A stretch of DNA of 64,000 bases from Corallococcus exiguus (GCF_051058965.1 NZ_CP183924.1); one strand, 5' to 3'; counted from the stretch's first letter, positions 1-8,084 are shown. Made by a program: numbers and translations. Notes: a model not told the origin generated them from the letters alone.

Positions 1-1333
1 GCTTGCACTGGGGCAGCGACAGCTCCGCGATGATCAGGATGCGCCGGCCCAGGCTGGACTGGGAGAGCTGCGTCAGCGGCGCGGTCCACGGAGCCGGGGG
101 CGCGAGCGGTGCGCTCGGGGCCACGGCCGCGGAGATGGAGGCGGTGGGCGCGGCGGGGGTGGCCGGCGTGAGGGCGGCCTTGGCGGCGCGCAGTGCCTTG
201 AGCGCGCCCTGCTTCGCGGGCAGCTTGATCAGCTTCGCGCCCACCTTGTGCAGCGTGCCCTTGCTCTTCTGGTAGAGGTGGCCGCGCTTCGTGCCGGGGG
301 GCAGCACGCGCTCGCGCATGGCCCAGTAGCGGTTGATGGCCTTCCACGCGAGGCTGCCGTTGATGTGCGCCAGCTCCGAGCCCTGGCGCGACACGTGCGC
401 ATCCAGCTCGTAGATGCGAGCGTTCTTGCGGCCCAGCTCCTCCTGGAGCATCCGCTGGGCCAGGCCCTGCCGCGCGAGCCGGCCTTCGAACTCGCGCAGG
501 GTGCTGGCGGTGTCGCGTGCCGCTTCACGGGCGGCGTCCAGCTCCGCCTGGAGCTGCTGCGCCTGGCGCGCGTGGTCCGCGGCCTGCTGTTCCTTCTGGC
601 CGTAGGCGTCGCGCAGGTGCTGCCGGTGCAGCAGGAGCGTCAGGCGCCCGCCCAGCGTGGCGAAGGCCTGCCGCACGTGTTCACGTTCCGCGTCCCGGGT
701 GCTCGTCAGCGCGAGCATCCCTTCCGGCTGCTCCGGGCCCACGGCGAGCACGCCCAGACCGAAGCCGTGTTCGAACTCGAAGGAGGGATACTGGCCCTTC
801 AGCTCCTCCCACAGTTGCCAGACGCCGAAGTTGCGCTCGTGCACGTGGGTGTCGTGGAAGAGGATGACGCCGCGCGCGCTCATCTTGGGGCGCCAGTGCT
901 CGAAGTCCGCCTTCACCTGCGCGTACTCGTGGCAGCCGTCGATGTGGAGCAGGTCGATGGAGCCGTCCGCGAACTGGCTCAGGGCCTCGTCGAAGGTCAT
1001 CTGGTGCAGCTGGGAGAACCGGCTGTAGAGCGGGTCATGGTGCGCGCGCAGGTCCGCGAGCACGTCCGCCCCGTAGAAGCCCGCGTGCGGGTCACCCTGC
1101 CAGGTGTCCACCGCGTGGCAGCGCGTCTCCAGCTTCAGCGCGTCCACCGCCTGGCAGAACGCGGAGTAGGACACGCCGGTGTGCGCACCCAGCTCCACCA
1201 GCGTCGCGGGACGCAGCAGGTCCATCAGGAACATCGCGAACGGGACGTGCTCCACCCAGGCTGAGGAGGCCAGCAGCCGCAGGGGCTGCGTGAGGCAGAG
1301 GGGGTGTTCCAGGGGATTGAGCTGTGGATGCAT
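1..1333 (-). CDS. Class I SAM-dependent methyltransferase (TylF/MycF-like, Methyltransf_24-type) with a long C-terminal coiled-coil. 3' end runs off the left edge of the window.
   Basis: Manual minus-strand translation from ATG 1333..1331: [12 protein letters not shown]...[46 protein letters not shown]...[54 protein letters not shown]..., then a heptad-like Q/A/R/E/L-rich stretch ([34 protein letters not shown]...). No minus-strand stop down to nt 2 (frame checked at 893-901 = E-H-W, and spot checks for TCA/CTA/TTA). It is missing from the ORF track because it has no in-window stop. The plus-strand 248..1264 ORF is its antisense shadow. Confidence 0.75.
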
Positions 1334-1483
1334 GTTGGTGGCGTCCGGAAGGCCGACCCTCGCTGCAGGCAAGGCACGCCCCCCTCTCCTTGGCGGATGT
1401 CCTCCATGTCACCCCCCTCCGGGAGCGTCAAGGCTGGCAGCCCGCCCGCTCCCCATGGGAGGAGGCGCGTTCGCTGTTCATTT

Positions 1484-5944: not shown

Positions 5945-7251
5945 GAGCCGACGTCTCGCACTGGCGCCACGCGAGCCGCGGCGCCCTCCACGATCCACCG
6001 GTGCGGAGGCCGCGTCAGGCCTCCGTCCCGCACGCTGGAGCGCACCTCGAAGGCGCACGCCGCCTCGCGCTTCTCCCGCACCTGCCCTGCACGGTCGCGC
6101 ACCACCACCGTGAACGCATAGCGCCCCGCGGTGAGGCCCAGCCGGTCCACCACGAAGCGCACCGTCCCGCTGCCGGCCGCCGCCGCGCAGAAGGGCACGT
6201 CCTCCGCGAACGTGTCCGTGGCGTGCACCAGCACTCCGTCCGCCCGGGAGAGCTCCAGCCCCAGGCCCAGCTCCGGCGCGGGCGTGCGCGCGGTGTACGC
6301 CACGCTCAGCTCCAGGCCGTCCTCGGTGTCCACGAACTCCACCGCCGCGCCGTCCCGGCCCAGCAGCCGCACCGCGTCCACGGTGAGCGGAGACGGTTCG
6401 GCCTGGGGCGCCGCCAGCGACGGCAGCGCACCGCCATCCGACGCCAGCGCGGGCGCCTCCATGGACATGCCGCGCTCTTCCGCCAGCGCCACCGCGCGGC
6501 GGTAGCTGCGGATGACGTCCGCGGGCGGACCGAACTCGCGGATGCGCCCGGCGTCGATCCACGCGCCCAGGTCGCACCAACGCTCCAGCGTCCCCAGGTC
6601 GTGGGTGACGATGACGATGGTCTTCCCGGCCCGCTTGAACTCCGTCATCTTCGCCAGGCTCTTCTTGCCGAAGTGCTCGTCACCGACGGCGAGGATCTCG
6701 TCGATGATGAGGATGTCCGGATCCACGTGCGTGGCCACGGAGAACGCCAGGCGCATGTACATGCCGCTGGAGTAGGTGCGCACCGGCTCGTCGATGAAGT
6801 CGCCCAGCTCGCTGAAGGAGATGATCTCCTCCATGCGCGCCTTCACCTCCGCGCGCGACATCCCCAGGATGATGCCGTTGATGAGGATGTTCTCCCGGCC
6901 GGAGAAGTCCGGGTGGAAGCCCGCGCCCAGGTCCAACAGCGCGCTGATGCGCCCGTTGATGTCGATGGTGCCCGTGGTCGGCGTGTAGATGCCGGAGATG
7001 AGCTTGAGCAGCGTGCTCTTGCCAGAGCCGTTGCGCCCGATGATGCCCACCGTCTTGCCGCGGGGCACCACCAGGTCAATGCCCCGGAGCGCTTCGATCA
7101 TGGACTTGCCGTCCGTGTCGCGCTGGCCACGCAGGAGGCGGATGAGCTCCGACTTGATGGTGGTGTACTCGCGCCGGATGGTGCTCTTCCGGAAGCTCTT
7201 CACCACGTTGCGGAGCACGATGGCGTCCGGAGACGCGATGGCGCTGGTCAT
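5941..7251 (-). CDS. wzt: O-polysaccharide ABC transporter ATP-binding protein Wzt, with a C-terminal glycan-binding (Wzt_C-like) extension.
   Basis: Real start is ATG 7251..7249 (MTSAIASPDAIVLRNVVKSF...), overlapping the wzm stop (ATGA). Walker A GRNGSGKST, signature YSSGMYMRLAF, Walker B ILIIDE. An extra ~190 aa beta-rich tail follows the NBD. The upstream part of ORF 5941..7686 is junk. Confidence 0.9.
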   Translation of the reverse strand: MTSAIASPDAIVLRNVVKSFRKSTIRREYTTIKSELIRLLRGQRDTDGKSMIEALRGIDLVVPRGKTVGIIGRNGSGKSTLLKLISGIYTPTTGTIDINGRISALLDLGAGFHPDFSGRENILINGIILGMSRAEVKARMEEIISFSELGDFIDEPVRTYSSGMYMRLAFSVATHVDPDILIIDEILAVGDEHFGKKSLAKMTEFKRAGKTIVIVTHDLGTLERWCDLGAWIDAGRIREFGPPADVIRSYRRAVALAEERGMSMEAPALASDGGALPSLAAPQAEPSPLTVDAVRLLGRDGAAVEFVDTEDGLELSVAYTARTPAPELGLGLELSRADGVLVHATDTFAEDVPFCAAAAGSGTVRFVVDRLGLTAGRYAFTVVVRDRAGQVREKREAACAFEVRSSVRDGGLTRPPHRWIVEGAAARVAPVRDVGS

Positions 7252-8084
7252 ATGAACTCCGCGAAGTCCTCGCGACGGCGCTCGAAGATGCCCGCCGCCA
7301 CCCACAGCAGCGCAGCGGAGATGCCCATCCACATCAGGAGCGGGCCGGGCTGCGGCAGCTGGTGTTCGTAGAAGATGGCCTGGTACGACGTCACCATCAC
7401 CGCCATGGGGTTGAGCAGCACGATCGGCCCCCGGGCCGCCTCTGGCAGCGAGTCCACCCGGTAGAACACCGGCGTGACGAAGAACCACATCGTCAGCAGG
7501 TTGGCGATGATCTGCTGCAGGTCCCGGAACGTCACGTTGAGCGCGGACACGATGTAGACCAGCGCCACCGTCATGCACAGCTGCGTGAGCAGCACCACCG
7601 GGAACGCCACCACGTGCCAGCTGGGCACGTAGCCCAGCAGCAGCCCCAGCGCGACCATCAGCGGCAGGGACAGCACGTAGTTGCACAGGTTGGTCACCAC
7701 CACCGTGGCCGGCAGCACCTGCGCGGGGAAGCGCACCTTGGTGAGCAGGTCGCGCCGGTCACTGATGGCGCTGGCCCCCGTCCCCAGCGACGTGGAGAAC
7801 CAGATCCACGGGAGCAGACCTATGAAGACGAAGAACGTGTACCCGGGGATCTTCTGCCGCATGTAGACGGTGAAGAGCAGCGAGTAGACGCCCATCTGGA
7901 GCATCGGGTTGAGGAACGTCCAGAAGAAGCCGAGCACCGAGTTCCGGTACCGCGCCTTCAGCTCGCGCTGGGTCAGGCTGAGCAGGAGGCCCCGGTACTG
8001 GTAGAGCTCACGGAGGTTGCGAAGCATGCGGCGCCATCCATACCTCATGCCCCCGGAAGGTGTCAGGCATGGGACTCCAGCCAT
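7248..8084 (-). CDS. wzm: ABC-2 type polysaccharide exporter permease Wzm.
   Basis: ORF 7248..8084, 6 predicted TM segments. Typical ABC-2 N-terminus: LRELYQYRGLLLSLTQRELKARYRNSVLGFFWTFLNP. Alternative start is ATG 8048. Confidence 0.88.
   Translation of the reverse strand: MAGVPCLTPSGGMRYGWRRMLRNLRELYQYRGLLLSLTQRELKARYRNSVLGFFWTFLNPMLQMGVYSLLFTVYMRQKIPGYTFFVFIGLLPWIWFSTSLGTGASAISDRRDLLTKVRFPAQVLPATVVVTNLCNYVLSLPLMVALGLLLGYVPSWHVVAFPVVLLTQLCMTVALVYIVSALNVTFRDLQQIIANLLTMWFFVTPVFYRVDSLPEAARGPIVLLNPMAVMVTSYQAIFYEHQLPQPGPLLMWMGISAALLWVAAGIFERRREDFAEFI

Follow-up and report, generated by a model that had tools for sequence, protein, structure and literature searches.

We analysed a 64,000-nucleotide (nt) stretch of DNA from Corallococcus exiguus (GCF_051058965.1, NZ_CP183924.1), referred to below as the window. 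Its first 8.4 kb carry a polysaccharide cluster that encodes the two subunits of a transporter of the ATP-binding cassette (ABC) type, Wzm and Wzt, a 283-residue GT2 glycosyltransferase (GT), a 473-residue two-domain protein, a double-GT2 protein and, cut by the left edge of the window, a methyltransferase-containing protein whose gene we call gene 1 (Table 1). Every gene between positions 1 and 8400 lies on the minus strand and is transcribed from high to low coordinates. The cluster had been described in an earlier note written from the sequence alone, and third-position guanine-plus-cytosine (GC) content and Pfam matches confirmed that all six genes are real, on the minus strand and at the coordinates given there; the window has a GC content of ~72%, and the third-position GC of its true genes is 0.87-0.92. 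The stop codon of wzm overlaps the start of wzt, and 4-nt overlaps occur at four gene junctions, which suggests a single translationally coupled operon. A promoter scan of the locus found none, as is expected in a genome of 72% GC, and every NCBIfam match of the locus proteins fell far under its cut-off.

Table 1. Features of the polysaccharide cluster at the left end of the window.
Feature	Position (nt)	Strand	Basis or remark
Tandem tRNA-Gly(GCC), two copies	8183-8257, 8288-8362 (8183..8362)	-	ARAGORN; upstream limit of the polysaccharide cluster
Terminator-like hairpin	8150-8179		Terminator scan; between the tRNA-Gly genes and wzm
wzm, ABC-2 permease of the glycan exporter	7248..8084	-	PF01061
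wzt, 436 residues	5941..7251	-	PF00005 and PF14524
Wzt_C carbohydrate-binding domain (Wzt residues 291-412)	6016..6381	-	PF14524
283-residue GT2 glycosyltransferase	5093..5944	-	PF00535, E 3e-8
473-residue two-domain protein	3675..5096	-	AlphaFold model and Foldseek
Double-GT2 protein, 757 residues from ATG 3757	1484..3757	-	PF00535 and second GT2-like stretch
Gene 1, first 444 residues, cut at the left window edge	2..1333	-	Methyltransf_24
Gene 1 O-methyltransferase domain, residues 1-200, proposed chain terminator	734..1333	-	PF13578
Gene 1 coiled coil, residues 214-326, proposed molecular ruler	356..694	-	AlphaFold and heptad pattern
Gene 1 basic helical segment (328-388) and Pro/Ala-rich disordered linker (389-425)	59..352	-	Charge, pLDDT
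Gene 1, beginning of the first of two GT4 (GT-B) modules	2..58	-	Sister contigs

The left boundary of the cluster had been placed outside the window, and gene 1 does continue past the left edge. The exact Wzt protein is present on four public contigs whose DNA is 98-99% identical to the window, and on all four of these sister contigs gene 1 encodes 1205-1208 residues; in L004 it matches all 444 residues encoded in the window exactly. The full protein (1205 residues) consists, in order, of an O-methyltransferase, a coiled coil, a basic segment, a proline/alanine-rich linker and two GT4 modules. Pfam places Methyltransf_24 at residues 46-162, Glyco_trans_1_2 at 627-771, forming the first GT-B module, and Glyco_transf_4 (802-997) followed by Glycos_transf_1 (1060-1161), which together form the second GT4 module. 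The closest cluster representative, named C. exiguus, is 97% identical and the C. coralloides protein 93%. When full-length gene 1 was compared with Protein Data Bank (PDB) sequences (E ≤ 0.01), GT4-type glycosyltransferases alone were returned, and no methyltransferase or WbdD structure was among them. The earlier note had seen in gene 1 the logic of the chain terminator WbdD; this held for the methyltransferase at the far end of a coil, but the fusion to two GT4 modules is not WbdD-like. By its domain content gene 1 is not a plain methyltransferase, and it is not a stand-alone WbdD either. As it runs on into two GT4 modules, a terminator, a ruler and a probable polymerase would be combined in one chain of 1205 residues. 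There is an annotation lesson here as well: an edge-truncated gene bearing the label 'methyltransferase' appears to be really the front of a three-function assembly enzyme.

The N-terminal domain of gene 1 matched Methyltransf_24 (PF13578) with an E-value of 4e-26 and 92 bits against a cut-off of 26.3. In Foldseek searches the modelled domain matched Mg-dependent O-methyltransferases resembling catechol O-methyltransferase (COMT), with E ~4e-8 and a TM-score on the target of 0.6-0.74. These matches include Mycobacterium hassiacum MeT1 (6g80), a sugar 3-O-methyltransferase. The acidic catalytic motif (metal/SAM) is conserved, with D123, D127, H130 and D132 unchanged in all 27 orthologues. The domain had been described as TylF-like; an O-methyltransferase it is, but Methyltransf_24 or COMT-like, Mg-dependent is the better description of its family. 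By its profile match and modelled fold this domain is an O-methyltransferase of that kind, and we propose it as a candidate chain terminator. A hidden kinase, as would be needed for a methyl-phosphate cap, was considered and rejected: the methyltransferase ends at residue ~200, the long helix begins at 214 and no unassigned folded domain lies between, and Pfam found no kinase family in any protein of the locus. The cap would accordingly be a direct O-methyl group and not a methyl-phosphate.

The coiled coil that the earlier note had postulated in gene 1 is present. An AlphaFold model of the 444 window residues, made as a monomer from an alignment of the 27 orthologues (mean predicted local distance difference test score, pLDDT, 81.7), shows a compact methyltransferase domain, an unbroken helix of 113 residues (214-326), shorter helices up to residue 388 and then proline/alanine-rich disorder. 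Block-mean pLDDT along the coil is ~85-95 over residues 211-310 and falls to 75 at 311-320 and 62 at 321-330. A simple heptad score found a single constant register over residues ~239-336, with 19 of the 30 a/d positions hydrophobic, and several scoring windows within the coil exceeded the 95th or 99th percentile of shuffled sequences. The helix rise is ~1.5 Å per residue, so that 113 helical residues would make a coil ~17 nm long. A crude heptad scan detected no extended coil in the other proteins of the locus.

The strongest evidence for the coil, in our judgement, is comparative and lies in heptad-sized insertions and deletions. We counted the coil-containing span between two invariant anchors, G194 and S327. 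Corallococcus has 133 residues there, and other Myxococcaceae have 140, 140, 140, 147 and 154; the span is shorter in Variovorax (88-89) and longer in alphaproteobacterial relatives (161-204). The full set of orthologues thus covers spans of 88 to 204 residues, between flanking domains that are conserved throughout. Of the eight nearest clusters of orthologues whose coil differs in length, five do so by +7, +7, +7, +14 and +21 residues. These differences aligned as contiguous blocks of 7 and 21 residues, among them tandem duplications of a heptad: RDQLTQT occurs three times in P0006 and ELARQRD twice in P0008. A coil that changes length by whole heptads between conserved flanks suggests that the length itself matters. 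The natural coil-length variants could be used to test the ruler idea without protein engineering. In all orthologues the coil is closed by a conserved S-x-x-W motif (S327-x-x-W330; window residues 327-338, nt 320-355), a region that reads STSWRITAPLR in the alphaproteobacterial relatives.

Directly after the coil, a count of charges and hydrophobic moments gave 15 K/R against 1 D/E over residues 325-400. This basic segment at the base of the coil is probably a membrane-proximal anchor. Low pLDDT and disorder follow over residues 389-420, and the proline/alanine-rich linker there is proposed to act as a tether between the anchor and the GT4 modules.

Wzm matched ABC2_membrane (PF01061) with E 4e-18; it has 278 residues when read from the ATG at 8084, and the start used by its relatives corresponds to 8027, giving 259 residues. 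Wzt consists of a nucleotide-binding domain (NBD, residues ~1-250, with ABC_tran, PF00005, at 55-186), a linker (251-290) and a C-terminal carbohydrate-binding domain; among solved structures its ATPase is nearest to 8dku, the Wzt of Aquifex aeolicus (E 7.5e-60, residues 54-260). The tail past the ATPase has 186 residues, in agreement with the extension of ~190 residues that had been predicted. Its residues 291-412 matched Wzt_C (PF14524) with 50.5 bits against a cut-off of 30.4, and a profile built from an alignment of ten tails from related loci picked up the solved carbohydrate-binding domain of Aquifex Wzt (6o14/8dky) over ~125 positions with E 2.6e-4. On the strength of this profile match to a solved domain, we conclude that the tail is a genuine Wzt carbohydrate-binding domain. 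Compared with a Myxococcus xanthus-type Wzt, the NBD is 78% identical and the tail 33%. The tail evolves much faster than the ATPase, as would be expected of a glycan-specific reader.

The M. xanthus-type contig (L084 11356-19639) was reached through a Wzt 61% identical to that of the window. In M. xanthus the locus is wzm-wzt-wbgA-sgmR-wbgB, MXAN_4623-4619 (names and tags from a bioRxiv preprint), and loss of Wzm/Wzt blocks O-antigen synthesis (PMC7484181). The two clusters occupy the same chromosomal site with the same flanks; in both, a housekeeping group of nadB-like, SLT, TPR/AIM24 and pgsA genes precedes wzm. They share orthologous Wzm (68% identity) and Wzt with a Wzt_C domain, PgsA at 87% identity and a double-GT2 module. 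The remaining enzymes differ: the M. xanthus locus encodes WbgA (1275 residues, two GT2 modules and a WsaF-like GT4), SgmR (684 residues, Methyltransf_11/12/23) and WbgB (780 residues), and has no counterpart of gene 1, of the 473-residue protein or of the 283-residue GT2. No extended coil was detected in the M. xanthus-type locus proteins by a crude heptad scan. By synteny and identity, the window cluster is the positional orthologue of a proven O-antigen locus with a different enzyme cassette. A single conserved chromosomal site with a single transporter is thus seen to serve one enzyme cassette in Corallococcus and another in Myxococcus.

The cluster had been credited with three GT2 polymerases and adaptors. 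GT2 proteins are present, but they comprise one 283-residue GT2, one two-module GT2 and, in the 473-residue protein, a non-canonical GT-A domain, and the GT4 pair of gene 1 is the likelier polymerase. The 283-residue GT2, with a weak match below cut-off to the rhamnosyltransferase model TIGR01556, is conserved only in Corallococcus and Cystobacter loci and by its sequence is a candidate adaptor or primer-extending enzyme. The double-GT2 protein matched PF00535 over residues 259-374, with another GT2-like stretch over 664-739. Its N-terminus carries a variable tandem repeat of ~16 residues (ATL-x-S/P-ADRK...), with 3 copies in L001 (9690-9900), 2 in L004 (4790-4940) and 0 in the window (3600-3760), and this copy number explains an insertion/deletion of ~177 nt. 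The repeat variation also suggests that in the window the protein truly starts at ATG 3670 (728 residues) and not at ATG 3757; the latter would overlap the preceding gene by 83 nt.

This double-GT2 protein could itself be the polymerase, with the GT4 pair of gene 1 confined to an adaptor, a side branch or a terminal oligosaccharide. It is homologous to WbgA of M. xanthus over the N-terminal two thirds of that protein (37.5% identity over 730 residues, WbgA 86-807) and so is common to both loci, it travels with gene-1 homologues in other genomes, across phyla, and two-module GT2 proteins do polymerise in Klebsiella O7 (PMC11231755). In the characterised fused systems, however, the polymerase modules reside on the coiled-coil protein (PMC11231755), and when species differ in their other enzymes, the component that they have in common is more suggestive of a conserved adaptor step. 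We regard the assignment of polymerisation to the double-GT2 protein as unlikely, and by analogy with the characterised systems consider the GT4 pair of gene 1 the likely polymerase.

The 473-residue protein had been read as a second methyltransferase fused to a GT-A-like domain. Both folds were recovered. In its AlphaFold model (pLDDT 80.6), a methyltransferase-like Rossmann half (residues ~12-185, nt 4542-5063) is followed by a GT-A-like half (~193-400, nt 3897-4520) and two C-terminal helices (418-469); Foldseek matched the first half to the class I methyltransferase 3cc8 (E 6e-7) and the second to the GT-A enzymes SpsA/AvpGT (E ~1e-10). Pfam gave no methyltransferase match and only a weak GT2 match (E 4e-4). 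The glycine-rich S-adenosylmethionine (SAM) loop (E/DxGxGxG) occurs in none of the 24 + 26 aligned members of the family, which has ~65 representatives at 50% clustering, and in the same members the acidic residue after strand 2 is unconserved. The DxD site is D-A-R in the window protein and DDDD in a few distant relatives. Q222, E228, H293 and D358 are invariant in the family, which points to some function under selection. The N-terminal half may therefore methylate nothing, and the protein is poor evidence for a second methylation step. We also considered it as an orthologue of M. xanthus SgmR and rejected this; the two show no BLASTP similarity and belong to different families.

Taken together, these features make it probable, in our estimation, that the locus is an ABC-transporter-dependent assembly and export cluster for a lipopolysaccharide (LPS) O-antigen with cap-ended chains. 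Gene 1 has the fused layout established by experiment for WbbB and ORF6 of Klebsiella and WsaE of Geobacillus, and we propose the same mechanism for it. Glycan synthesis would take place on the cytoplasmic side of the inner membrane, with a polyprenol as carrier, the GT2 enzymes probably making the adaptor and/or part of the repeat. The two C-terminal GT4 modules of gene 1 would lengthen the chain near the membrane, while the O-methyltransferase would be held ~17 nm off at the end of the ~113-residue coil, whose basic base probably lies on the membrane. A non-reducing end that reaches the methyltransferase would be O-methylated; extension would then stop, and the chain length would be set. The carbohydrate-binding domain of Wzt would recognise the capped end and license export by Wzm/Wzt. 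Much of the scheme in the earlier note survives in this proposal, namely the ABC pathway, the carbohydrate-binding tail of Wzt and the methyltransferase on a coil; the likeness to WbdD, the GT2 polymerase and the second methyltransferase were corrected. Of the three points on which that scheme had been made to hang, the Wzt tail belongs to Wzt_C, the coil is present and the continuation of gene 1 does not leave it a plain methyltransferase.

Several observations weigh against capped chains measured by a ruler. The C-terminal 761 residues of gene 1 come from the sister contigs and lie outside the window. The coil was modelled as a monomer, and the disordered proline/alanine linker parts the coil base from the GT4 modules, making the geometry less rigid than that of a simple ruler. 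A literature search found no chemistry for any Corallococcus O-antigen, and the O-antigen of M. xanthus carries 6-O-methyl groups on ~60% of its in-chain N-acetylgalactosamine (PMC9535733). The M. xanthus Wzt has a Wzt_C domain in a locus where no extended coil was found, so that in this family the Wzt tail alone is no proof of capping. Outside the Myxococcaceae, gene-1 homologues frequently lack wzm/wzt as neighbours. Within 10 kb of four homologues sampled outside the Myxococcaceae on long contigs, from Variovorax and three alphaproteobacterial or metagenomic sources (L087-L090), there was no wzm or wzt; such Methyltransf_24-GT homologues of Variovorax and alphaproteobacteria stand alone or with other methyltransferase or GT genes. 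In Pyxidicoccus fallax the module of double-GT2 and gene-1 homologues adjoins a nonribosomal peptide synthetase (NRPS) gene (L009 1-9900). The sampled contigs give no support to a general association, across bacteria, of gene-1 homologues with a Wzt that bears a carbohydrate-binding domain. The sample is not decisive against such an association, because exporter genes can sit elsewhere in a genome. Where GT4-GT4 homologues come without the methyltransferase (Nitrosomonas, Azonexus and Terasakiispira), we looked for a separate terminator in the locus, with a mixed outcome: a Methyltransf_11-GNAT protein and a PIG-L-GT2 protein whose tail is coil-like were found, and no clean equivalent of WbdD.

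The main alternative for the window cluster is in-chain methylation. The gene 1 methyltransferase would decorate sugars along the chain non-stoichiometrically, as the in-chain methylation of M. xanthus suggests, and the coil would only oligomerise or scaffold the enzyme, which the flexible linker between the coil and the GT4 modules and the pairing of Wzt_C with a coil-free locus in M. xanthus would both allow. The ratio of transporter to synthase would then set the chain length, and the Wzt tail would bind the body of the polymer. However, the M. xanthus methyltransferase SgmR is of a different family and has no counterpart here. Moreover, a modifying enzyme placed ~113 helical residues from the polymerase is hard to explain if it acts during polymerisation, while distal placement is the arrangement of every characterised terminator (PMC11231755), and the stepping of the coil by whole heptads between two conserved flanks suggests that its length is of consequence. 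We believe in-chain decoration to be unlikely as the role of gene 1, and terminal capping remains our preferred reading. It is improbable that the cluster makes some other ABC-exported glycan (capsule-like, secreted, or destined for a protein or lipid acceptor) in place of an LPS O-antigen, even though a Pfam scan of positions 1-8.4 kb found no waaL ligase or initiating transferase, homologues of gene 1 are also met apart from wzm/wzt, one of them beside an NRPS gene, and WsaE-type enzymes serve surface-layer (S-layer) protein glycosylation in Gram-positive bacteria (PMC2943079). The cluster is in positional orthology to wzm-wzt of M. xanthus, without which no O-antigen is made (PMC7484181), the M. 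xanthus priming enzyme and ligase are likewise separate genes outside the five named genes of its locus (PMC7484181, bioRxiv preprint), and several source annotations name close Wzt relatives as O-antigen exporters.

A more far-reaching proposal, which we put forward as doubtful, has two parts. If the coil is a ruler, the orthologues would constitute a natural allelic series in which the modal length of the O-antigen scales with heptad number, and the 473-residue protein could be a non-catalytic organiser of the assembly complex, of a kind not described for the Klebsiella and E. coli prototypes.

The surroundings of the cluster hold some further observations. GC content falls to 0.64-0.66 over window positions 6500-9000, covering wzm, the start of wzt, the tRNAs and pgsA, against 0.71-0.75 on either side. 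Upstream of pgsA lies a gene for a 592-residue protein (9149-10927, minus strand) with N-terminal TPR repeats, an acidic and proline-rich low-complexity middle and a C-terminal AIM24 domain; M. xanthus keeps it at the same position, and its two ends are 61-84% identical there. To the left of the window, past gene 1, C. coralloides and the sister contigs carry on the opposite strand a DUF2142 membrane protein, a DUF2304 protein and a 232-residue GT2, a trio that looks like a Gtr-type system for periplasmic side-chain glycosylation (cf. PMC11127046). Beyond it follow a 548-residue GT4 and an RmlD homologue (L011 14507-21522; L001 15878-17412), the latter hinting that the glycan may contain rhamnose. 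On a contig of a proteobacterial metagenome-assembled genome (L014 9929-18669), a gene-1 homologue adjoins a 1281-residue protein of WbgA architecture and a DUF2142 gene. The gene-1 homologue, the WbgA-type protein and DUF2142 appear to travel together across phyla.

The O-antigen of myxobacteria affects gliding motility and development. If our reading is right, the locus extends the strategy of capped chains and coiled-coil rulers, found so far in enteric bacteria and one Gram-positive, to the social, predatory myxobacteria. According to Whitfield and colleagues, all characterised terminated ABC-transporter systems place the terminator at the distal end of a coiled-coil protein, and their Wzt carries a carbohydrate-binding module (CBM) that accepts only capped chains (PMC11231755). 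Nearest in layout are WbbB of Klebsiella O12 and ORF6 of O7, each of which holds a terminator, a coil and two GT modules in one chain (Williams 2017, Kelly 2024, as described in PMC11231755). They share with gene 1 the N-terminal terminator, the extended coil and the two C-terminal GT modules, and wzm and a CBM-bearing wzt lie alongside. [quoted passage not shown] WbbB was set against gene 1 by description, and the likeness of gene 1 to WbbB and ORF6 may be one of layout and not of common descent.

WsaE of Geobacillus stearothermophilus joins a cap-forming N-terminal O-methyltransferase to two GT domains, and its gene comes immediately behind wzm-wzt (PMC2943079). Its similarity to gene 1, likewise judged by description, includes a wzm-wzt operon with overlapping stop and start codons and a Wzt predicted to bind the methylated end. 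It differs in serving S-layer protein glycosylation with a rhamnan in a Gram-positive, whereas the product here is most likely an LPS O-antigen. WbdD and WbdA of E. coli O9a/O8 resemble gene 1 in the methyltransferase at the distal end of a coil ruler, the membrane-binding region at its base, the two GT4 modules of the polymerase WbdA and a Wzt tail that reads the cap. WbdD is, however, a separate protein that recruits WbdA, whereas gene 1 fuses both functions through its proline/alanine linker, and in O9a a kinase adjoins the WbdD methyltransferase, where gene 1 has none. By these two differences gene 1 falls outside the definition of WbdD, and at the level of sequence comparison homology to WbbB or WbdD is not demonstrable. 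By its layout and likely function, the locus most likely belongs to the known class of capped-chain systems with a coiled-coil ruler. What it adds to that class is a new host lineage, the combination of Methyltransf_24, a coil and two GT4 modules in one protein, a coil series stepped by heptads and an odd 473-residue partner.

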